The position numbers and the translations under genes were made by a program. A DNA stretch of 64,000 nt from Escherichia coli (GTDB lineage: Bacteria > Pseudomonadota > Gammaproteobacteria > Enterobacterales > Enterobacteriaceae): assembly GCF_003334315.1 (NCBI RefSeq), contig NZ_QOWR01000018.1; one strand, written 5' to 3'. Position 1 is the first letter of the stretch, and each line of letters begins with the position of its first letter. The notes below the pieces were generated by a model that saw only the letters and a program-made list of their open reading frames with translations, had not been told where the DNA came from and ran no database searches. Below are positions 40,018 through 56,008 of the stretch, piece by piece.

Positions 40018-40963
40018 ACGCCCACTGGTTATAAACACACAGCTTGCGATGAAGATTGGCTTAAATGAAGCCATTGTGTTGCAGCAGTTGCATTACTGGT
40101 TGAGAGATACCAATTCCGGCATGGAATGTGATGGTGTTCGCTGGATTTACAACACAACGGAACAATGGCTGGAACAGTTCCCATTCTGGTCAGAGTCAAC
40201 GTTAAAGCGCGCGTTTGCAAGTCTGAAAACGCTGGGGCTTTTGCGTTGTGAAAAGCTCAATAAATCAAAGCGCGATATGACCAATTTCTACACGATCAAC
40301 TATGGGAGCGAGCTTTTAGATGGTGGCAAATTGAACGAATCCATCGGTTCAAAATGCGCCGCTCCATCAGGTCAAAATGACACGATGGAAGAGGTCAAAA
40401 TGAAACGCTCCATTGGTTCAAAACGACCCAATGTCATCGGGTCAAAATGGCCTGATGATCTTACAGAGAATACAACAGAGATTACTACAGAGAATAAAAA
40501 CACTTTTCGTCCGGAAGCTTCGCAACCGGACCCGCAGACCGCTGAACAGGATTTTTTAATCCGGAACCCCGACGCGGTTGTGTTTAGTGCGAAAAAACGC
40601 CAGTGGGGTAGCAGGGAGGATTTGGCGTGTGCGCAGTGGATTTGGGGGCGGATCGTGAACCTTTACGAACAGGCTGCCAGCGACGATGGAGAGATCATGC
40701 GACCAAAAGAGCCTAACTGGACAGCCTGGGCCAATGACGTGCGCACAATGCGGATGCTGGATGGCAGAAGCCACAGACAAATTTGCGAAATGTTTGGTCG
40801 GGTACAGCGAGATCCATTCTGGGTAAAAAACATCATGAGCCCGTCAAAACTCCGCGAAAAATGGGACGAACTGGTCATCCGCTTGGGACGTTCACCTGTA
40901 CAGCGTTGTGTGAATCATATTTCTGAACCGGATACAGAAATTCCGCCTGGTTTCAGGGGATAA
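39998..40963 (+). CDS. putative phage replication initiation protein (O/YdaU-like N-terminal domain)
   Basis: 321 aa from MSLLFAERPLVINTQLAMKIGLNEAIVLQQLHYWL; position in the replication module. Confidence 0.5.
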   Translation: MSLLFAERPLVINTQLAMKIGLNEAIVLQQLHYWLRDTNSGMECDGVRWIYNTTEQWLEQFPFWSESTLKRAFASLKTLGLLRCEKLNKSKRDMTNFYTINYGSELLDGGKLNESIGSKCAAPSGQNDTMEEVKMKRSIGSKRPNVIGSKWPDDLTENTTEITTENKNTFRPEASQPDPQTAEQDFLIRNPDAVVFSAKKRQWGSREDLACAQWIWGRIVNLYEQAASDDGEIMRPKEPNWTAWANDVRTMRMLDGRSHRQICEMFGRVQRDPFWVKNIMSPSKLREKWDELVIRLGRSPVQRCVNHISEPDTEIPPGFRG

Positions 40964-41003
40964 GTGTTGATTTCAGGTCATGAGGTAATTTTAAGGAGGA
41001 CTT

Positions 41004-45774: not shown

Positions 45775-46299
45775 TTATTGTTTAACCCATAATAGTTCAT
45801 TGACATTGAATCCCAACTTTTGAGCGGTACGCACATAGTCTGCTTTTACATTATCTGGAATAGTTTGGGTCCTTGCCAGAATCCATAGGTATTCTCTGTT
45901 CGGACCACTGACAAGAGCATACTTATACTCATCATCCAGCTTGATTACATTATAGCCACCATAGAAGGGGCCAAAAAACGAAACTTTCAACGCTGCAGTT
46001 TTAGTATCTCCAGTAAAGTATGCTTTACCTTCGCTCTCGCTCCATTTGTTTTTCGTTGGATCGTATCCACGGTTAAGTACGCGAATCCCTCCGTCGTTCC
46101 GTTTTTCATAAGTAGCGCTGACCTGTTCCAGACCACGTTCGAACCAGTTCTCGAGGCGAGCTATTTCATACCATTTTCCGAGGTAGCGGTTGGCGTCAAA
46201 ATTTGTAATCGGCTGCACACCTTTAGGTGGTGTCGGGGCCTTACATGCTATAAGAGTGAAAGAGAGTGCAATGCCAGTCAACACAGGCCATAACTTCAT
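45775..46299 (-). CDS. Blc-like outer membrane lipocalin lipoprotein (174 aa)
   Basis: Signal peptide with lipobox LIAC; lipocalin motifs (GKWYEIARL, YALVSGPNREYLWILAR). Confidence 0.75.
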   Translation of the reverse strand: MKLWPVLTGIALSFTLIACKAPTPPKGVQPITNFDANRYLGKWYEIARLENWFERGLEQVSATYEKRNDGGIRVLNRGYDPTKNKWSESEGKAYFTGDTKTAALKVSFFGPFYGGYNVIKLDDEYKYALVSGPNREYLWILARTQTIPDNVKADYVRTAQKLGFNVNELLWVKQ

Positions 46300-46491
46300 A
46301 ATAAATCCTGTACTTTTGATAGTTGAGAGTAAGTATGAAAGATAGATGAGTACGACCGATCACTTAAAGAACTTTCCTACTATATTAGGAATAGTCAATA
46401 ACAGAAAAATTGTCAGTGATGAAGCCAGAAAGGCAATTTAGTCCGTGCACTACAAAGTTTATGTGTTAATGAATTAGTCAAGGGGGAGGAA

Positions 46492-47451
46492 ATGATAAAA
46501 AAACCTGTGATTGGGATCAGCGGTTGTTTGGGCGGTTCTGCTGTTCGTTTTGATGGTGGTCACAAAAGAGATGACTTTTTAATGGACAAATTAGTGGAAT
46601 GGGTAACATTCAGACCAGTATGTCCGGAAATGGCTATAGGGCTGCCAGTTCCGCGTCCTGCTCTACGACTTGTGCGCTCGAAGCAAGGAAATATACGGAT
46701 GTGTTTCAGCCACGACCAGAATGAGGATGTGACAGAGAGAATGACAGAGTTTAGTCGTTCTTATATGGACAAATTAAAGGATGTATCGGGGTTTGTGGTT
46801 TGTGCTAAATCTCCCAGCTGTGGCATGGAGCGCGTGCGTGTCTATGATGAAAATGGTAATCGAGGTCGTAAAGATGGAGTGGGACTATTTACGAGCACTT
46901 TGATGGAAAAGTTTTCCTGGCTACCGGTTGAAGAGGATGGGCGATTACATGATCCAGTGCTTCGTGAGAATTTTATTGAAAGAGTTTTTGCTTTGCATGA
47001 GCTCAATCACCTTTACAAGGAGAAATTATCAAGAAGAGAGTTATTAGCTTTTCATAGTCGTTATAAGCTTCAGTTGTTGGCGCATAGCCAGGCAGGCTAT
47101 AAAGATATGGGACCATTTGTGGCTGCAATACACGAGTGGGCGGACCTTGAATCATACTTTGAGGTGTATCGTGATAATCTGATGGCGATTCTCAGAAAAC
47201 CAGCATCACGTAAAAATCACACGAATGTGCTGATGCATATACAGGGGTATTTTAGTAATTACTTAAGTACACGCCAGCGTAAAGAGTTGAGCGAGGTTAT
47301 ACTTAACTATCGCTTTGGCACATTGCCTCTTCTTGCGCCGTTGACTCTGCTGAAGCATTATCTGGGTGAGTATCCTAATGATTACTTGCTTACACAGAAT
47401 TACTTCGATCCCTATCCGGAAGAACTGGCTCTAAGACTGATGGTGAATTAA
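46492..47451 (+). CDS. DUF523/DUF1722-family protein (YbgA/TudS-like, 319 aa)
   Basis: N-terminal IGISGCLGGSAVRFDGGHKRD ... VCPEMAIGLPVPRPALRLV typical of DUF523 as recalled; AGGGGGAGGA RBS. Confidence 0.55.
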   Translation: MIKKPVIGISGCLGGSAVRFDGGHKRDDFLMDKLVEWVTFRPVCPEMAIGLPVPRPALRLVRSKQGNIRMCFSHDQNEDVTERMTEFSRSYMDKLKDVSGFVVCAKSPSCGMERVRVYDENGNRGRKDGVGLFTSTLMEKFSWLPVEEDGRLHDPVLRENFIERVFALHELNHLYKEKLSRRELLAFHSRYKLQLLAHSQAGYKDMGPFVAAIHEWADLESYFEVYRDNLMAILRKPASRKNHTNVLMHIQGYFSNYLSTRQRKELSEVILNYRFGTLPLLAPLTLLKHYLGEYPNDYLLTQNYFDPYPEELALRLMVN

Positions 47452-47848
47452 CTGTATGCGATATCATCTGAAAGTGATGAGTTCCTGTATGCAGGATATT
47501 TACAATCGTAAAAACTACGCTATGATGCTCATAGTGTCAGTTTTTATAAAAATCCTGTTCACGCTAAAGAAAACATTGAGATGCAATTTAATGTTGGTAA
47601 ACATACCAGCCCCAAACGATTTTATTCAATCTGTTTTTATATGAAGATATTTCAAGTGAATATTAAGAGTATATAATATTATTATTGCACGCAGCTATTA
47701 TAATATAACAGATTAGTTTAATGATTTGTTTTTTGTGAGTTAAACACATGGTTTTATAGTTGTGATGCAATGAGATTTTCCTTATTGTTGAACTGGCGAA
47801 TATTGATTTTCCACCTATACTTACCTGGTGTAACCCCAATGATATCAG

Positions 47849-48571
47849 GTGGATAATATGCCATACATATGTTCTATCATTTTGGTGTTGAACTCGTTTG
47901 GTGTCCGAATTGGTAAAGAAGATATTTTGTTTAAAAAAGGAAATGCTGTCCTCATTGAATACAATTTAAAAGATCTTTTTTCGTCAAATACAGATCATCT
48001 AATGATCGTAGATGTTGAGGAGAAAACAGTTAATGATTTCTTTAAAAACTACACACTCTCACCTTTTTCTGTAAGAAGGTTTTATCCGTCATACTTGATA
48101 GTAGAATGTGAAGATTTTTCATTGTTAAAGAACTTGGTTGCATGCTTGAATTGTGATAGCAAAACCGTGGATGTAGTTAGAAATCAAATATCACTTGCAT
48201 GTCTTGCTGTCTTATCTTCAGAGAAAATAGTGCAAAGTTTTTTGTTCGGAAGTCTTAATAGCTTAGGTTGTAAAGTTAAGGCTATTATTCACTCGGATAT
48301 CTCAGCGTCATGGAGACTTTGTGATATATCTTCAAGATTATATATGAGCGAGAGTTTGTTAAAAAGAAAATTAAAAGACGAAGGATTATCGTTTAGTAAA
48401 TTAATTCTTGAAGAACGAATGATGATGGCGCAAAGATTATTGATCTACAGTAACCATACTGTCGGCAAGGTGGCGGGAATATGCGGGTATGACAATGCAT
48501 CATATTTTGTAAGTGTTTTTAGAAGATATTTTGGTGTGCCTCCGCACCAATATTTATCAAGATTTTCTTAG
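47849..48571 (+). CDS. AraC-family transcriptional regulator (240 aa), AT-rich gene
   Basis: C-terminal AraC HTH signature (...GICGYDNASYFVSVFRRYFGVPPHQY). Confidence 0.75.
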   Translation: MDNMPYICSIILVLNSFGVRIGKEDILFKKGNAVLIEYNLKDLFSSNTDHLMIVDVEEKTVNDFFKNYTLSPFSVRRFYPSYLIVECEDFSLLKNLVACLNCDSKTVDVVRNQISLACLAVLSSEKIVQSFLFGSLNSLGCKVKAIIHSDISASWRLCDISSRLYMSESLLKRKLKDEGLSFSKLILEERMMMAQRLLIYSNHTVGKVAGICGYDNASYFVSVFRRYFGVPPHQYLSRFS

Positions 48572-48761
48572 AAGATATGATGTGATGGCATTTTATAAAG
48601 TTATTTTTTGAAGTGTAAGATTATACGATATTTTTAGCTACGCCAGAATAATTGCTGGCGTTTTTCTTTTTGAATAGATGTTCGGGCCTTACGCTAATGT
48701 AACTTCTTTCCTTCTTCGAACCAAACCGTGTACACCATCCGTTATCTGCGGAGGTGAGGCT

Positions 48762-48977
48762 ATGAAATCCATGGATAAGTTAACAACGGGCATCGCCTAC
48801 AGCACCTCTGCAGGCAGTGCTGGCTACTGGTTTTTACAGTTGCTCGATAAAGTCACACCCTCACAGTGGGCGGCAATAGGTGTATTGGGTAGTCTGGTAT
48901 TTGGCATGCTGACGTATCTGACAAACCTTTATTTCAAGATTAAAGAAGACAGGCGTAAGGCTGCGAGAGGAGAGTAA
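48762..48977 (+). CDS. phage holin (EssD/EssQ-like class II, 71 aa, possible dual start MKSM)
   Basis: [71 protein letters not shown]; GGAGGTGAGG RBS. Confidence 0.85.
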
Positions 48978-48981
48978 GACA

Positions 48982-49200
48982 ATGACTAAAAACTATGAAC
49001 TGATTGTGAAAGGGACCCGCAATTTTGAGAATAAAGTTACGGTAATCTTAACGTTACAGGACAAAGAACGTTTTGCCGGTGAAATTTTTGATCTGAACAT
49101 CAACCTTGAGCGACTTGAAGGAGCTGGTTTGGATTATTATGAAGTTACTGCGGTAAAACATGCCAAACAGTTCTTGAGAGATTTGGCTGAAAAAATATAA
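48982..49200 (+). CDS. hypothetical protein (72 aa) inserted between holin and endolysin
   Basis: ATG with AGAGGAGAG RBS, 4 nt after the holin stop. Confidence 0.5.
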   Translation: MTKNYELIVKGTRNFENKVTVILTLQDKERFAGEIFDLNINLERLEGAGLDYYEVTAVKHAKQFLRDLAEKI

Positions 49201-49224
49201 AGCGGCATTACTGCCGCTTAGAAA
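49201..49224. terminator. bidirectional hairpin between convergent small genes
   Basis: AGCGGCA-tta-CTGCCGCT stem-loop. Confidence 0.45.
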
Positions 49225-49521
49225 TTATTCAATGTCTGGTAGCTTATCAAAGATTTCGGATACTCTTATATTTGTCATATAAGCAAATTGAGATTCTGCC
49301 AGCTCTTTGGGTGATTTTCCCGCTTTTTCTGAGCCAAAAATTGTTTCTAAAGCCAGCATGTTATATTTGAGAACCTCTTCTCGAGTTTTACCTGATAATT
49401 TTGCGGTAACAGCAATATAAAAAGGCAACACTTTATCCAGAAGGTCGTTGTGTTTTGTCAGTTGTGGTAATACCACATCAAGTTGCTTACTGATTGGTTT
49501 GAATGGATCTATACCGTTCAT
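49225..49521 (-). CDS. hypothetical protein (98 aa), opposite strand within the lysis cassette
   Basis: ORF convergent with the 72 aa gene; no recognizable family. Confidence 0.5.
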   Translation of the reverse strand: MNGIDPFKPISKQLDVVLPQLTKHNDLLDKVLPFYIAVTAKLSGKTREEVLKYNMLALETIFGSEKAGKSPKELAESQFAYMTNIRVSEIFDKLPDIE

Positions 49522-49648
49522 AGTTACATTCCCTTATCAGAGGTAATCAGCCATCCCCCCTTTATTACACACGCCAGTATCCACCACTGACGGGCTGAGT
49601 GCTTAACATATCTAGAGATTAGAAACTGATAAATCCTGATAAATATCC

Positions 49649-50676
<1,028 letters not shown>

Positions 50677-51039
50677 ATTAATATTAAATCGGATTATTTT
50701 TAGCGCTGAATGTGAAATTTAAATAAAAAGGACTCTTCCATGAGTCAAAATCCTTGAAATCTTAAGGGTAAGATAAAAGGTCATTAGACAGAATGACACG
50801 TTTTATTAATAAATAAAGCTATTGTTTCATTCGTGTGTTTTTCTTTACAAAAGTAATCCTTGCTATGGTTGGTTAATCATGCGTTAATGGTGTTCTGGTT
50901 TGTTACAAAATTATCTGAAGCAGTCATTGTTATAATTTTATTATTTGTACCTCTTGAGATTTCCTTGTTGGTTTTTCTCTCTGATATTTTTTTTCGGACC
51001 ATTCTGCCCAAGGGCTAACTTCTTCAAAAGGTAATAATG

Positions 51040-51252
51040 ATGTCTAACAAAATGACTGGTTTAGTGAAATGGTTTAACCCTGAAAAAGGTTTTGGTTTCA
51101 TCACGCCGAAAGATGGTAGCAAAGATGTGTTTGTCCATTTCTCAGCTATTCAGAGCAACGATTTCAAAACGTTAACTGAGAATCAGGAAGTCGAATTTGG
51201 TATTGAGAACGGACCTAAAGGCCCCGCGGCTGTTCATGTTGTGGCACTTTGA
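51040..51252 (+). CDS. cold shock protein (CspA family; CspB/CspI-like)
   Basis: [38 protein letters not shown]... RNP1/RNP2 motifs. Confidence 0.9.
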
Positions 51253-51561
51253 GGTAGAAAATATTACAAACCATATTCACTTTAGATGCCCGTGTTGCCA
51301 TGGTTCTCAGTATAGAACATCATCTTTTGATGTTTCTGACAGGAATCCTTTCGGGGCAAAATGTATCTTTTGTAAATCAATGATGATTACATTTGATAAT
51401 ATTTCACAATACTTAAATGTTAGCCGTCTGTCGTTAGATTTAAGAAAGTGAAAATGAAGGCTCCTTCGGGAGCTTTTTTGCTTAGTGTCTAGTCGATGGA
51501 TACTCACATATTACGGTAACATTATGAAAAAAATAATAGTTTTTTTAACTCTGAACCAGCA

Positions 51562-51753
51562 ATGGTAGTGCCAGTGATGACCGGAGTTAACACCATCATG
51601 CGTGAATATCCAAATGGCGAAACAACACACCTCACTGTAATGGCTGCAGGGTTTCCATCTCTGACCGGAGATCATAAAGTCATTTATGTAGCAGCGGATC
51701 GGCATGTAACTTCAGAAGAAATTCTGGAAGCAGCAATGAGACTCTTGAATTGA
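51562..51753 (+). CDS. hypothetical protein (63 aa)
   Basis: ORF only; no RBS check; position of ynfN in K-12 Qin. Confidence 0.3.
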   Translation: MVVPVMTGVNTIMREYPNGETTHLTVMAAGFPSLTGDHKVIYVAADRHVTSEEILEAAMRLLN

Positions 51754-51925
51754 TTTGATTCTAATGCATTGATAATAAATGATAATCATCTTTATCTGTT
51801 TGTGTGAAATTTAGACCGTCGTATGTTGATTATTGCGATGTTTCATCTTATCTTTTATACGCTTGCTCCATATAATTGACACTACTGTGTACCAGGAAAG
51901 TCATAACAGACTAAAAGAGGAAATG

Positions 51926-52099
51926 ATGAACATTGAAGAGTTAAAAACAAAAACAGAAGCAGATATTTCTGAATATATAACAAAAAAAATCATTGAGCTT
52001 AAGAAAAAGACCGGGAAAGAAGTTACCAGTATCCAGTTTACTGCACGGGAAAAAATGACTGGTCTTGAAAGCTATGATATCAAGATTGATTTAATCTAG
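51926..52099 (+). CDS. gnsB: GnsA/GnsB-family protein (57 aa)
   Basis: MNIEELKTKTEADISEYITKKIIELKKKTGKEVTSIQFTAREKMTGLESYDIKIDLI; AAAGAGGAA RBS. Confidence 0.8.
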   Translation: MNIEELKTKTEADISEYITKKIIELKKKTGKEVTSIQFTAREKMTGLESYDIKIDLI

Positions 52100-52164
52100 T
52101 CTGTTTATAGCATTAGCATCAATTTCTCATCAGATGCTATTCAACAATACAAATTACCCATAAA

Positions 52165-52186
52165 CCTCGTTTTTACGGGGTTTTGT
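52165..52186 (+). terminator. rho-independent terminator after gnsB
   Basis: CCTCGT-tttt-ACGGGG hairpin followed by TTTT. Confidence 0.55.
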
Positions 52187-52394
52187 TATATTTAAACATT
52201 ACCGAATAGGTATAAATCTCGATTGTCGATGGTATTGGTTGTGTGACAATACCTAGTCTTTTCGGTATGCCTGAAGAGAATACAAACGACAGATTATGTA
52301 AGGGAAACGCGCTGAATCTTTCACTCTTTCATGCTGAGTGATTTGACGTTATATTTTTAGCCGTAAGTGAAGAGCAAACGCATGGAGCGACAAA

Positions 52395-52601
52395 ATGCAT
52401 AAAGATCAATACACTGATGCCCCCTCCCAGGAGCAGGTTCGTGTAAAAACTATGCTTAATAGCACCATTTCGATGGGTTACCCGGATGTTGTAATTGCAT
52501 GTATAGAACATCAAGTGTCTCTGGAAGCATTCAGGGCAATTGAGGCCGCGTTAGTAAAGCACGATAAGAATACGAAGGATTATTCCCTGGTGGTTGACTG
52601 A
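52395..52601 (+). CDS. hypothetical protein (68 aa)
   Basis: ATG with GGAG RBS about 10 nt upstream. Confidence 0.4.
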
Positions 52602-52966
52602 TCACCATAACTGCTAACCATTCTGACCATTTCACAAGTGACAGAGTCAATATCGTATTCTGTCACTGTCAGGCTAATACAGCAATGCAATTCAACTACA
52701 GCAATGCCTCGTATTTAGGTGAATTTACAATATCGTCCAGTTCGGATGCCGGCTGCATTTCTGAAGATAAGGCATTTCGGTTCTCGTATTTTCCCCTCAT
52801 GCTCGTCAGTCCTGCGCGTAGTAAGAGACAGGACACTCACACTAATTTGTGTGGGCATGCTGTGATGTCCTTCTGAATTATCCCCATGCCATTATGTAAA
52901 GCTCTGTTACAGATGCTCGTCACGGTTGTCAGGCTGTCGGGTCCTCCCAGTGGGGGGCCCTGCCAC

Positions 52967-52984
52967 GGGGCGGGAGCGTCGCGG
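52967..52984. other. candidate cos site (cosN-like) upstream of terminase
   Basis: ACG-GGGCGGGAGCGT-CGCGG resembles lambda ACG-GGGCGGCGACCT-CGCGG; lies about 170 bp before the terminase small subunit start. Confidence 0.5.
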
Positions 52985-53151
52985 AAAAAGGCTAGTTTTT
53001 GCATTTCCATGGTGGCGGCAGCATGTTTGGTAATTTATTGATAATTAAAAGTTATTTCTCTTTTCAGCTGTACAATATTTTTTTCTCCCTGTCATTAGAC
53101 TAGTTTGCAATTAATTGAAATATATAAATAAACCTGATTTTCACCTGCCAG

Positions 53152-53691
53152 ATGGAGTTGCTTATGTCAAATGTGAGCGGGATCGGTGATGCTTATTACT
53201 GGAGTGTTTTTAAAATCGCCGAGGCCTTTGGGCTTCACCGGGACACAGTAAAAAAACGGCTCCTCGCGGCCAACACTCCTGTGGCTGCGACTGTCAGGGG
53301 GAACCCCGTTTACGCCCTGCAGCATGTCGGGCCTGCCCTGTTTAGTGTGAAGCATGAGGCAGCAGACTCTGTTCATGATCCATCCCGTATGGAGCCGAAA
53401 GAGAGAAAGGACTGGTACCAGTCGGAAAATGAAAGGATCAAGTTGGAAAAGGAGCAGCGAAAACTCATCCCCGTTGATGAAGTAGTCATCGTCTATTCGT
53501 CCATGAGAAAGGCTGTCGTCCAGGTTCTGGAGACAATTCCGGATGTTCTTGAACGCGATTGCGCCCTGACTCCTCAGGCCGTTGGCGTTGTACAGCAGGC
53601 CATTGATGACCTGCGATACACTCTTCAGGAAAAATCCTACGAGGCTTGTGCTGCTGAATTAATTCCTGATGAGGAAGGAGAGAGTCTCTAG
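53152..53691 (+). CDS. terminase small subunit (Nu1-like)
   Basis: Position and size; N-terminal HTH-like region; followed immediately by the large subunit. Confidence 0.7.
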   Translation: MELLMSNVSGIGDAYYWSVFKIAEAFGLHRDTVKKRLLAANTPVAATVRGNPVYALQHVGPALFSVKHEAADSVHDPSRMEPKERKDWYQSENERIKLEKEQRKLIPVDEVVIVYSSMRKAVVQVLETIPDVLERDCALTPQAVGVVQQAIDDLRYTLQEKSYEACAAELIPDEEGESL

Positions 53692-53699
53692 GAGGAATA

Positions 53700-55799
53700 A
53701 TGGGTTTTTCATCAGCCCGAAATTTGGGAAGGGACATATCGGCAGGATTTTCCCCACCACGTCGCATGCCGATTTCGGAGGCTGTTAAAAAATTCATGCG
53801 TGTTCCCAAGGGGGCTGGTAACTCGGTGCCATGGGATCCTGAACTGACACCCTACATCATTGAGCCCATGAACTGCCTGGCATCGCGTGAATACGATGCG
53901 GTGATTTTTGTTGGTCCTGCGCGAACAGGGAAGACCATTGGTCTGATCGATGGATGGATTGTCTATACCATCGTTTGCGATCCTTCGGACATGCTCGTTG
54001 TGCAGATGACCGAAGATAAGGCCCGCGAGCATTCAAAAAAGCGCCTCGACAGAACGTTCAGAAGCAGTGCGGCGGTAAAGAAAAGAATGAGTCCACGTCG
54101 TAATGACAATAATGTCCATGATAAGACGTTCAGGGATGGCTCGTTCCTTAAAATTGGTTGGCCCTCGGTCAACATTATGTCGTCGTCGGATTACCGGTTT
54201 GTCGCCTTAACCGATTACGACCGTTTTCCGGAGAATATCGACAGCGAGGGTGATGGTTTCTCCCTGGCCTCAAAACGTACCACCACATTTATGTCCGCCG
54301 GGATGACTCTGGTGGAGAGCTCGCCGGGACGTGACATCTGCGACAGCAAATGGCGACGTAAGTCGCCTCATGAAGCGCCACCGACGACTGGTATTCTTTC
54401 CCTTTACAATCGTGGTGACCGCCGCCGCTGGTACTGGCCATGTCCGCACTGCGGTGAATATTTTCAGCCAGCCATGGATGCCATGACCGGCTACCGTAAT
54501 GAACCGGATCCCTTTAAAGCCAGTGAGGCGGCGTATCTACTTTGCCCGCACTGCAGCGGCATTATCACTGCGGAGAAAAAGCGTGAGCTCAATAGTGCAG
54601 GAGTCTGGTTGCGTGAAGGTCAGGTCATTGATTGTAACGGCAACGTTTCCGGTGAACCGCGCCGCTCCCGTATCGCCAGTTTCTGGATGGAAGGGCCAGC
54701 TGCTGCGTATCAGACCTGGGCGCAACTGGTTTACAAATTACTGACTGCAGAACAGGAGTATGAAGCGACAGGAAGTGAAGAAACACTCAGGGCGGTTATC
54801 AACACCGACTGGGGATTACCTTATCTTCCCCGCGCCAGCATGGAGCAACGAAAAAGTGAACTGCTTGAGCAGCGGGCAGAGCCAGTTCCTTCCCGCAGTG
54901 TGCCAGATGGCGTTAATTTTCTTGTGGCGACAGTGGATGTGCAGGCGGGACGTCATCGCCGTTTTGTGGTTCAGGTAACGGGCTATGGCAGCCGTGGCGA
55001 ACGCTGGATTATTGATCGTTACAACATCACGCAGTCATTGCGCGGTGACAGCGACGGGGAGAGCCAGCGAATTGATCCGGCCAGCTATCCGGAAGACTGG
55101 GATGTCCTGCTGACGGATGTTTTTCATAAAAGCTGGCCGCTGGCCTCCGATCCTTCTCAACAAATGCGACTGATGGCAATGGCGGTGGACTCCGGCGGTG
55201 AAGACGGGGTCACTGATAATGCCTATAAATTCTGGCGTCGTTGCCGTCGTGATGGCCTTGGTAAACGTATTTACCTGTTTAAGGGCGACAGCATCCGGCG
55301 CGCAAAACTGATCACCCGTACATTCCCTGATAACACCGGACGAACGGGCCGACGGGCGCAGGCCGCAGGTGATGTGCCGCTCTGGCTTCTTCAGACGGAT
55401 GCACTGAAAGACCGGGTGAATAACGCGTTATGGCGTGACTCGCCAGGTCCCGGCTATGTGCATTTCCCTGACTGGCTGGGGAGCTGGTTTTACGACGAAC
55501 TGACGTATGAAGAGCGGAGCAGTGACGGGAAATGGAGTAAGCCGGGTCGCGGTGCCAACGAAGCTTTTGACCTGATGGTGTATGCCGAGGCTCTGGTCAT
55601 TCTGCATGGATACGAAAAGATCCGCTGGCCGGATGCACCGGAGTGGGCGAGCCGGGAAACCTGGCTGGAGTGTGTCCCGGACAGTACCGAACCGTCATCC
55701 TCACCGGAACCGGTATCCACGCCTGTTAAAAAACAAAAACGGAAGAAAACAGTAACTGACGATGTTAACCCCTGGCTGACTTCCGGAGGATGGTTATGA
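53700..55799 (+). CDS. terminase large subunit (gpA-like)
   Basis: 699 aa; Walker A-like GPARTGKT; GGAGGA RBS. Confidence 0.85.
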   Translation: MGFSSARNLGRDISAGFSPPRRMPISEAVKKFMRVPKGAGNSVPWDPELTPYIIEPMNCLASREYDAVIFVGPARTGKTIGLIDGWIVYTIVCDPSDMLVVQMTEDKAREHSKKRLDRTFRSSAAVKKRMSPRRNDNNVHDKTFRDGSFLKIGWPSVNIMSSSDYRFVALTDYDRFPENIDSEGDGFSLASKRTTTFMSAGMTLVESSPGRDICDSKWRRKSPHEAPPTTGILSLYNRGDRRRWYWPCPHCGEYFQPAMDAMTGYRNEPDPFKASEAAYLLCPHCSGIITAEKKRELNSAGVWLREGQVIDCNGNVSGEPRRSRIASFWMEGPAAAYQTWAQLVYKLLTAEQEYEATGSEETLRAVINTDWGLPYLPRASMEQRKSELLEQRAEPVPSRSVPDGVNFLVATVDVQAGRHRRFVVQVTGYGSRGERWIIDRYNITQSLRGDSDGESQRIDPASYPEDWDVLLTDVFHKSWPLASDPSQQMRLMAMAVDSGGEDGVTDNAYKFWRRCRRDGLGKRIYLFKGDSIRRAKLITRTFPDNTGRTGRRAQAAGDVPLWLLQTDALKDRVNNALWRDSPGPGYVHFPDWLGSWFYDELTYEERSSDGKWSKPGRGANEAFDLMVYAEALVILHGYEKIRWPDAPEWASRETWLECVPDSTEPSSSPEPVSTPVKKQKRKKTVTDDVNPWLTSGGWL

Positions 55800-56008
55800 A
55801 CCAGAATGATATCGAAGCCATGATTCAGCGTTATACGGAAGCTGAAATGGCGGTGCTGGACGGAAAATCCGTCACCTTTAATGGTCAGCAGATGACCATG
55901 GAAAACTTATCTGAGATCAGGCAGGGACGGCAGGAGTGGGAGCGCCGCCTTGCGGCTCTGATTACACGACGACGGGGGCATCCCGGGTATCGGCTGGCGA
56001 GGTTCTGA
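55796..56008 (+). CDS. head-tail joining protein gpW-like
   Basis: About 70 aa ending ...RRRGHPGYRLARF, similar to the lambda W C-terminus; ATGA overlap with terminase. Confidence 0.65.
   Translation: MNQNDIEAMIQRYTEAEMAVLDGKSVTFNGQQMTMENLSEIRQGRQEWERRLAALITRRRGHPGYRLARF

Follow-up and report, generated by a model that had tools for sequence, protein, structure and literature searches.

A probable chain of phage morons, formed by the Qin cold-shock block and a ybcW module, between the lysis and packaging genes of an Escherichia coli prophage

In the window (the whole 64,000-nt stretch of Escherichia coli DNA analysed), the interval that separates the Rz spanin gene from cos is very probably a chain of phage morons, genes of putative benefit to the host. 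It is put together from two mosaic pieces and belongs to the late operon of a lambdoid prophage that is full-length and of the Qin type. The marks of morons are its position between Rz and cos, its deviant GC content and its own terminators (51460-51479 and 52162-52193). The order on the + strand is Rz/rzpQ, cspI, ynfQ, the ynfR remnant, ynfN, gnsB, a 68-aa ORF, cos and the small terminase gene (Table 1). The GC content is 38% across the interval (50677-52967), and 36.5% for 50700-52700 against 48.8% in the lysis genes and 53.5% in the terminase genes. At the left edge, rzpQ is the final lysis gene, whose product shares 148 of 165 residues with K-12 RzpQ, and at the right edge the small terminase gene is the first packaging gene.

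Table 1. Features of the interval and its borders, with positions in the window
Feature	Position	Strand	Basis or description
Interval	50677-52967		between Rz spanin gene and cos
Rz-type i-spanin gene rzpQ	50179..50676	+	phrog_312 Rz-like spanin, E 4.6e-58; RefSeq rzpQ
cspI 5' untranslated leader, cspA-type RNA thermometer	50882..51039	+	Rfam RF01766
cspI, CspA-family cold-shock protein, 70 aa	51040..51252	+	phrog_729, E 2.7e-28; NCBIfam Csp models, E 1e-40; RefSeq CspI
ynfQ (ymcF-like), 62 aa, CxxC...CxxC	51263..51451	+	Pfam PF23641 YmcF-like, E 6.6e-33
ynfR remnant	51454..51492	+	alignment with K-12; RefSeq "too short" pseudogene
Intrinsic terminator after cspI-ynfQ	51457..51479	+	hairpin 51460-51473, then T6
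ynfN	51524..51753	+	phrog_3425, E 8e-46; phrog_4911, E 8e-36
TATAAT hexamer, candidate -10 of gnsB promoter	51871..51876	+	read from sequence; kept in K-12
gnsB, GnsA/GnsB family, 57 aa	51926..52099	+	Pfam PF08178, E 2.3e-33, positions 1-54 of 54
Intrinsic terminator after gnsB	52162..52193	+	9-pair stem 52162-52183, then T-rich tail
Mosaic junction	52231..52236	no strand	K-12 Qin homology ends, lambda/DLP12 homology begins
ybcW-like ORF, 68 aa	52395..52601	+	phrog_657, E 4.6e-48, positions 1-68 of 68
Perfect 9-bp inverted repeat	52637..52667	no strand	AGTGACAGA (52637-52645), 13-nt spacer, TCTGTCACT (52659-52667)
cosN, predicted 12-nt cohesive end GGGCGGGAGCGT	52968..52979	no strand	ends of phage genome records
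DUF1441-type small terminase subunit	53164..53691	+	phrog_141, E 3.8e-65; RefSeq DUF1441 family protein

The preliminary description had proposed an AT-rich cargo interval running from lysis to packaging genes, and the gene order and base composition (36.5% GC against 49-54% in the flanks) bear this out. The CspA-family and GnsA/B-family genes that it named are both present, as cspI and gnsB. It was also right about a ribosome-binding site before each gene and about long AT-rich spacers: Shine-Dalgarno-like motifs precede the starts (by eye, AAGG for cspI, GAGG for ynfQ, GGAG for ynfN, AGAGGA for gnsB and GGAG for the 68-aa ORF), and the spacers have 30-37% GC. Its terminator exists, though there are two intrinsic terminators and not one. 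The "two short unknown ORFs" did not hold up, as there are four small genes beside cspI and gnsB (ynfQ, ynfR, ynfN and the ybcW-like ORF), all named or annotated in RefSeq or K-12, and ynfQ and ynfR had been overlooked. RefSeq gives the names cspI, ymcF/ynfQ, ynfN and gnsB within the interval, and the family matches are PF23641, PF08178 and phrogs 729, 3425, 2301 and 657. The consensus promoter scan of the interval gave 6 promoter-like sites versus 8.6 in shuffles, which is no enrichment, and the Rfam scan of 46000-56000 at E <= 1 returned the cspA element, one chance snoRNA match and nothing else.

Generally, the interval is widespread. At least 80% of it is present in 1037 of 5426 complete genomes and part of it in 3360; many E. 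coli chromosomes differ from it by one base, and the isolated phages HannyBb and mEp460 (mEp460_ev081) are 98.7-98.8% identical to it.

Aligned with K-12 Qin, 49639-52236 has 91.8% nucleotide identity, from the endolysin gene to 137 nt beyond gnsB, and the prophage occupies the Qin attachment site, adjoining rspB. At the protein level the residues identical to K-12 are 70 of 70 for CspI, 59 of 62 for YnfQ, 48 of 51 for YnfN and 53 of 57 for GnsB. The likeness to a K-12 Qin cspI-ynfN-gnsB-ydfO block, which had been noticed before, is thus correct through gnsB and fails for ydfO, since the homology stops at 52236. The sizes of the ORFs had been said to differ from K-12, and it turned out that the difference traces to start-codon annotation and to the ynfN T7/T8 homopolymer. 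As to novelty, the alignment identifies the small ORFs with annotated genes, yet the identity to K-12 is partial and not full.

The translation of cspI carries RNP1 (KGFGFI) and RNP2 (VFVHF), and a promoter is predicted just 5' of its leader, in a region identical to K-12 upstream of the gene. The cspA thermoregulator model matches 50882-51298 with 109.8 bits (gathering score 78; E 5.6e-28). In the minimum-energy fold at 37 C, the leader is a single long stem-loop, and both the Shine-Dalgarno motif and the AUG are base-paired in it (z = -2.5). K-12 cspI is induced on temperature downshift and its 5'UTR is reported to be an RNA thermometer, and the fold obtained here agrees with the published cspI model (PMC13271884). 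A retron or defence reading of cspI was rejected, as the similarity to retron effectors is that of a generic cold-shock domain and no reverse transcriptase lies nearby.

Ten nucleotides past the cspI stop, ynfQ begins with an ATT start, and it is probably on one transcript with cspI. The YmcF-like family covers positions 1-61 of its 62 residues, and its cysteines (CPCC...CIFC) form a zinc ribbon of the YmcF kind. The next gene, ynfR, has 12 codons here versus 21 in K-12 Qin, with TAT changed to TAG, and its ORF extends through the hairpin of the first terminator (GCTCCTTCGGGAGC then T6, 51460-51479). This hairpin has a GCTCC/GGAGC stem and a UUCG loop and is unchanged in K-12 and HannyBb. K-12 YnfR is a verified small protein with strong cold-shock induction (PMC6001520).

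For ynfN, the Pfam search found no match. Its T-run at 51540-51546 is T7 here and in K-12 and T8 in most relatives, where a 76-aa ORF results. With T7, this form is divided between two ORFs, an upstream one of 14 codons (51524-51568) and one of 63 aa (51562-51753), and K-12 YnfN is annotated from an internal ATG (51 aa), which corresponds to the ATG at 51598 here. Besides, gnsB has a perfect TATAAT hexamer 49 nt upstream, the candidate -10 element of its promoter, which the consensus scan missed because the -35 is poor. The terminator after gnsB is kept in K-12 Qin. Unsaturated fatty acids increase when gnsA or gnsB is overexpressed (bioRxiv 10.1101/2024.03.27.586906; PMC10607373).

Beyond the junction, the 68-aa ORF is, by its sequence, a homologue of DLP12 YbcW (54 of 68 residues identical to the K-12 protein) and of an unnamed ORF in the lambda right arm, with 83% nucleotide identity to J02459 47629-48090. 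Its variable sites fall 15/12/24 by codon position. Kinship of this last ORF with ydfO was dismissed, as the Qin homology ends at 52236 and the lambda/DLP12 ybcW module begins at about 52231. The protein had no match in Pfam, NCBIfam or PADLOC, and the PDB profile search gave only E > 1 and no relative. A search of 5.8 billion proteins found close relatives only; among the 120 best listed, none has a name and the identity never falls below 74%, and many YbcW-like relatives sit on ENA contigs of about 3.5 kb and may be lambda-derived. The AlphaFold model predicts three helices (mean pLDDT 73.8), and Foldseek against PDB found nothing better than E = 2 for it. An FNR box (TGTTGATGATTTATGTCAAATATT) was mapped upstream of DLP12 ybcW (PMC1802558). 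FNR regulation of the homologue was discarded, since the published box lies just outside the shared homology and has no equivalent here.

The position of cosN follows from the exact ends of phage genome records: the phage cdtI record starts at the base aligned to 52968, and the phage Tritos record stops at 52967. Compared by eye, the predicted cohesive end resembles lambda cosN, which we take to be GGGCGGCGACCT.

The two pieces would work as follows. The Qin cold-shock block makes up piece 1 (50677-52236), in which cspI would have its own promoter and a long RNA-thermometer leader. At 37 C the leader would hold the ribosome-binding site and start codon in a paired state; on cooling it would refold, so that CspI, an RNA chaperone and antiterminator, could be made, and ynfQ would be translated off the cspI mRNA. 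Beyond the first terminator, ynfR and then ynfN would be reached by read-through. Next to its own terminator, gnsB would have a promoter of its own, and its expression would shift membrane lipids toward unsaturated fatty acids. Piece 2 (52231-52746) is the ybcW module common to lambda and DLP12, with a conserved 3' hairpin, and is followed by cos and the terminase genes. Most likely, the whole serves as a cold-inducible moron set that would add RNA-chaperone and membrane-fluidity functions to the lysogen. In this account the sequence analysis shows the identity of the genes, their homology and synteny, the base composition, the terminators, the match to the thermometer and the place of cos. 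From the literature on the K-12 orthologues we infer that the genes are induced by cold, remodel lipids and are expressed in the lysogen, the last being documented for the related prophage Tritos only (PMC9928086).

The host benefit is only probable because annotations of the GnsA/GnsB family also speak of a toxin, and gnsB with ynfN as its partner might instead stabilise the prophage as a toxin-antitoxin (addiction) module, like ymcE-gnsA, and not be cold-adaptation cargo. The family is labelled "GnsA/GnsB toxin / addiction module toxin" in Pfam and RefSeq, a list of type II toxin-antitoxin systems of E. coli includes ymcE-gnsA (PMC8484670), and ynfN holds the place of ymcE in the paralogous locus. 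Nevertheless, we consider an addiction module very improbable. YnfN has no detectable similarity to YmcE, and no adjacent overlapping YmcE homologue was found at gnsB when a GnsA-YmcE-type pair was looked for; ynfN and gnsB are separated by 172 nt with the TATAAT hexamer inside, whereas ymcE and gnsA overlap by 11 nt. Slippage at T7/T8 breaks ynfN in several lineages while gnsB stays intact, and one would not expect this of a gene for an essential antitoxin. Besides, multicopy gnsA or gnsB rescued growth and did not kill the cells (bioRxiv 10.1101/2024.03.27.586906; PMC10607373), and the PADLOC matches among the interval proteins amount to the generic cold-shock domain of CspI. A different objection is that the interval could have lost all current function and be junk decaying in a cryptic prophage. 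Decay may indeed have reached parts of the block, as ynfR is truncated and T7 breaks the long ynfN ORF by a frameshift, and K-12 Qin is itself defective. We give this hardly any credence as an account of the interval: the block is nearly unchanged in HannyBb and mEp460, which were isolated as virions, the CspI protein is 100% conserved despite about 8% nucleotide divergence of the region, the terminators are invariant, the cspI leader is kept with 3 differences from K-12, and the prophage has intact terminase, portal and tail genes.

Within the moron chain, two regulatory proposals concern single elements. One combines a cold-responsive attenuator at the terminator embedded in ynfR with a slippage switch in ynfN. 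A Csp antiterminator made in the cold, or ribosomes translating ynfQ and ynfR into the hairpin, may suppress termination and turn on ynfN, an idea suggested by the translation and cold induction of K-12 YnfR although its ORF crosses the terminator (PMC6001520); the T7/T8 tract may toggle between the 76-aa form and the short form with the upstream ORF, as suggested by T7 and T8 alleles found on otherwise identical haplotypes. Both together are doubtful and seem to us clearly improbable. The other proposal stands a slightly better chance, though we still think it unlikely: the inverted repeat may be a functional cis element, which could either form an RNA hairpin at which the ybcW transcript ends or by which it is stabilised, or else be bound by a dimeric protein. 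A repeat GTGACAG-n15-CTGTCAC at 52638-52666 had been described earlier as a possible regulatory site; it is present as such, and its arms are in fact perfect over 9 bp. It starts 36 nt past the ybcW-like stop and moves together with the ybcW module, across Nu1-type (lambda) and DUF1441-type (here) packaging modules, and in DLP12 it lies between convergent ybcW and ylcI. By our arithmetic, chance alone would give about 0.14 perfect 9-bp repeats per 2 kb. For perfect 7-bp inverted repeats, the region has 11 registers, and first-order Markov simulations gave 4.1 +/- 2.5. The RNA fold of the segment is better than that of shuffles (z = -3.2). Every locus long enough to include the site keeps the arms, as do lambda and DLP12, the loop varies (4 substitutions and 1 indel), and one variant changes A-U to G-U, so that RNA pairing is still possible. 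On the other hand, 80 IMG/VR loci yielded only 4 haplotypes of the repeat and about 8 of the 165-nt downstream block, in two lineages, with no compensatory change, and the flanking non-coding DNA is equally conserved; conservation of 14-16 arm bases at a background of about 83% has a chance of about 0.05-0.07 by our arithmetic. After the stem comes GTCAGGCTAATAC, neither strand has a T-run there, and the terminator scan did not report it, so the repeat is not a canonical intrinsic terminator, for lack of a U-tract; nor does it match an Rfam family.

The interval as a whole is ordinary, as it consists of the well-known Qin cold-shock block and a copy of the lambda/DLP12 ybcW, and the cspI-ynfQ-ynfR-ynfN-gnsB cargo is already known and documented. 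What it adds is that a full-length and probably inducible Qin-type prophage carries the cold-shock cargo that K-12 keeps in its Qin remnant, a tidy case of phage-borne stress-adaptation genes spread by live phages. Its significance is small outside annotation. For curators, it gives the exact cos position for the phage group with the DUF1441 terminase, the fact that the ybcW homologue has lost its upstream FNR box, and a ynfN T7/T8 polymorphism that accounts for the clashing 51-aa and 76-aa annotations.

Among the closest known systems is K-12 Qin, where rzpQ-cspI-ynfQ-ynfR-ynfN-gnsB (b1553-b1550) has the same order, orientation and attachment site, and shares the cspI leader, both terminators and the ynfN T7 tract. 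The two differ by a 36-nt indel after gnsB and in what lies 3' of the block, which is ydfO-ynfO-nohA in K-12 Qin and the ybcW-like gene, cos and DUF1441 terminase here, and K-12 Qin is a defective remnant whereas this prophage is full-length. In phages Tritos (from E. coli LF82), HannyBb, mEp460 and 2H10, the cspI...gnsB cargo also lies between Rz and cos, with 91-99% identity, and differs only by small indels and by the partner genes that follow it; the morons counted in strain LF82 include Tritos CspI and YnfN (PMC9928086). The ybcW homologue stands just upstream of cos in lambda, in DLP12 (b0559) and here, and the homology (about 83%) includes about 165 nt upstream and about 145 nt downstream with the inverted repeat. 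In DLP12, ybcW is flanked by bor and ybcV to one side and by ylcI to the other, and here the neighbours of the homologue are gnsB and cos. Finally, the chromosomal cspG-ymcF-ymcE-gnsA locus follows the same plan of a csp gene, 10 nt, an ATT-start zinc-ribbon small protein, a middle gene and a Gns protein. The paralogues are 79% (CspI/CspG), 68% (YnfQ/YmcF) and 63% (GnsB/GnsA) identical, while the middle gene product YmcE is not similar to YnfN, and the chromosomal genes overlap and have neither internal terminators nor ynfR, unlike the block carried by this prophage.

The preliminary description had placed an AT-rich interval with cold-shock and GnsB genes between the lysis and packaging modules, and this observation is confirmed. 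The interval runs from the stop codon of the Rz-type spanin gene to the cos site (50677-52967), and 50700-52700 has 36.5% GC, against 48.8% in the endolysin and Rz genes and 53.5% in the terminase genes, with spacers of 30-37%. The gene order combines the DNA itself, the list of ORFs and the RefSeq gene calls for a genome that is one base different. It turned out that four small genes, rather than two unknown ORFs, stand beside cspI and gnsB, all of them named genes, and that there are two canonical intrinsic terminators where one had been noted. The family assignments, phrog 2301 also among them, agree with the K-12 identities. A Shine-Dalgarno-like motif can be read 5' of every gene, as had been described. 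The annotated start of ynfQ is a non-canonical ATT, as in ymcF, 8 nt 3' of a GAGG motif which overlaps the cspI stop codon. Besides, a hairpin at 50731-50746 (GACTCTTCCATGAGTC), preceded by an A-run and kept in the K-12 cryptic prophage Qin, is terminator-like on the minus strand only, and no minus-strand gene lies to its right.

Genes and terminators of the cargo interval and the adjoining spanin gene
Feature	Position	Strand	Family or remark
Rz-type spanin gene	50179-50676	+	phrog_312
cspI	51040-51252	+	phrog 729
ynfQ/ymcF-like	51263-51451	+	PF23641 YmcF-like, E 6.6e-33
ynfR remnant, 12 codons	51454-51492	+	
ynfN	51524/51562-51753	+	phrogs 3425/4911
gnsB	51926-52099	+	PF08178 GnsA/GnsB, E 2.3e-33
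68-aa ybcW-like ORF	52395-52601	+	phrog_657, full length
Intrinsic terminator, GCTCC-UUCG-GGAGC then T6	51460-51479		canonical
Second intrinsic terminator	52162-52193		canonical

The supposed likeness to the Qin block holds from cspI to gnsB: the alignment gives 91.8% identity over 49639-52236, short of full identity, and homology ends 137 nt past gnsB. CspI is identical to its K-12 counterpart (70 of 70 residues), while YnfQ shares 59 of 62, GnsB 53 of 57 and YnfN 48 of 51 residues, the last counted over the part annotated in K-12. In YnfR only 12 of the 21 K-12 residues are left, through a TAT to TAG change, and the remnant ORF overlaps the cspI-ynfQ terminator hairpin. The differing ORF sizes that had been remarked on come from a T-tract (51540-51546) and start annotation in ynfN. 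With T7, as in the window and K-12, an upstream ORF of 14 codons is followed by one of 63 aa, and the K-12 annotation covers just the final 51 codons of the latter; with T8, as in most relatives, YnfN has 76 aa. This polymorphism accounts for the conflict between 51-aa and 76-aa annotations. Among the loci compared, T8 occurs in 30 and T7 in 7. The T7 allele turns up on several haplotypes that are not related, among them two pairs with 1-kb flanks otherwise identical, a pattern that may reflect recurrent slippage or else sequencing error in the homopolymer.

Where Qin homology stops, about 83% homology to phage lambda 47629-48090, and also homology to the ybcW region of the K-12 prophage DLP12, begins (~52231-52746), which places a mosaic junction at about 52231-52236. 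The last ORF matches phrog_657 and YbcW (54 of 68 residues identical) and is unrelated to ydfO, which follows gnsB in K-12. An FNR box has been reported 5' of DLP12 ybcW (PMC1802558), as has activation of ybcW by ArcA (PMC3798270). By comparison with DLP12 and lambda, this box is absent from the window; in both of them it lies just left of the junction, outside the common segment. Searches of Pfam, NCBIfam, PADLOC and PDB found no relatives of the 68-aa protein, and among the 120 best matches listed from 5.8 billion proteins there were close homologues only. Its predicted model has three helices at moderate confidence and gave no significant fold match. Many family matches sit on ENA contigs of ~3.5 kb, which we suspect may be lambda-derived sequencing-control DNA; if so, the apparent size of the family is inflated.

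At the right limit, the record of phage cdtI begins at the base aligned to 52968 and that of phage Tritos ends at 52967. The sequence here reads ACG, GGGCGGGAGCGT, CGCGG and resembles lambda cosN, so we place cosN at 52968-52979, with GGGCGGGAGCGT as the predicted cohesive end, 184 nt upstream of the DUF1441 small-terminase ORF (phrog_141).

The inverted repeat is real and longer than had been noted, with perfect 9-bp arms (AGTGACAGA, 52637-52645; TCTGTCACT, 52659-52667) around a 13-nt spacer, and the regulatory role given to it is putative. Its RNA fold is better than that of shuffles (z = -3.2), and both arms are kept in all related loci reaching the site and in lambda and DLP12, while the spacer varies by four substitutions and one indel. 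In one variant an A-U pair has become G-U, but no compensatory change occurs among about eight haplotypes of only two lineages, the adjoining non-coding DNA is conserved to an equal degree, no U-tract follows the stem and no Rfam family matches, so that a functional element is unlikely here. As it accompanies ybcW across two different packaging modules, the repeat is more probably part of the ybcW transcript than of cos.

A megablast search with 50600-53200 matched 3360 of 5426 complete E. coli genomes, 1037 of them with at least 80% query coverage, and the best matches differed by one base. E. coli 2018-06-4CC is colinear with 22740-64000 except for a 311-bp segment found only in the window; its prophage has complete head and tail genes and an integrase adjoining rspB, the Qin attachment site. 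The segment (40679-40989) is missing in the near-identical genome NZ_AP021893, where the matching replication-region gene is annotated as truncated. The large terminase ORF (53700-55799, 699 aa) is intact in the window, and the NZ_AP021893 annotation labels its counterpart a pseudogene interrupted by a stop codon. Between the Q antiterminator and holin genes there is another AT-rich cargo stretch (~45775-48571). Its gene content, judged by colinearity with NZ_AP021893, is blc (minus strand), a gene of the YbgA family and an AraC-type HTH gene (47849-48571, ~32% GC). In the holin-endolysin gap (48982-49521), the DUF1327 gene, a homologue of ydfR, is 72 codons long where K-12 has 103, followed by a 98-aa minus-strand ORF (49225-49521, phrog_25324) that K-12 Qin lacks.

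The same cargo DNA occurs in the isolated phages HannyBb and mEp460_ev081 (98.7-98.8% identity) and in 2H10, PhiR63_1 and Tritos (91-99%), indicating that the block is moved by live lambdoid phages. This presence, together with the perfect conservation of CspI, contradicts a reading of the interval as junk. The proposal that gnsB is the toxin of a toxin-antitoxin pair is weak, because a YmcE homologue is lacking, the 172-nt ynfN-gnsB gap contains a TATAAT hexamer and ynfN is frameshift-variable.

Most likely, the block is a cold-inducible set of morons (cargo genes within a phage late operon) which would supply the lysogen with an RNA chaperone and a membrane-fluidity factor. The cspI leader, three positions different from that of K-12, scores 109.8 bits against the Rfam cspA thermoregulator (curated threshold 78), and its predicted 37 C fold is one long stem-loop pairing the ribosome-binding site and AUG; this is the same model to which in-cell probing led for cspI (PMC13271884). 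Starting 10 nt past cspI, ynfQ is probably carried on the same mRNA. In K-12, the ORF of YnfR spans the terminator after cspI-ynfQ, and cold shock strongly induces this small protein (PMC6001520), implying that the terminator would be leaky in the cold. Overexpression of gnsA or gnsB leads to more unsaturated fatty acids and to the rescue of cold-sensitive mutants (10.1101/2024.03.27.586906; PMC10607373), and judging from these K-12 orthologues the block would be cold-induced and affect lipids. A published list of the morons in E. coli LF82 includes CspI and YnfN from prophage Tritos (PMC9928086). In conclusion, the preliminary interpretation was essentially right, and the interval is an already known and annotated feature, whose architecture matches the chromosomal cspG-ymcF-ymcE-gnsA locus, with proteins 63-79% identical save the middle gene.
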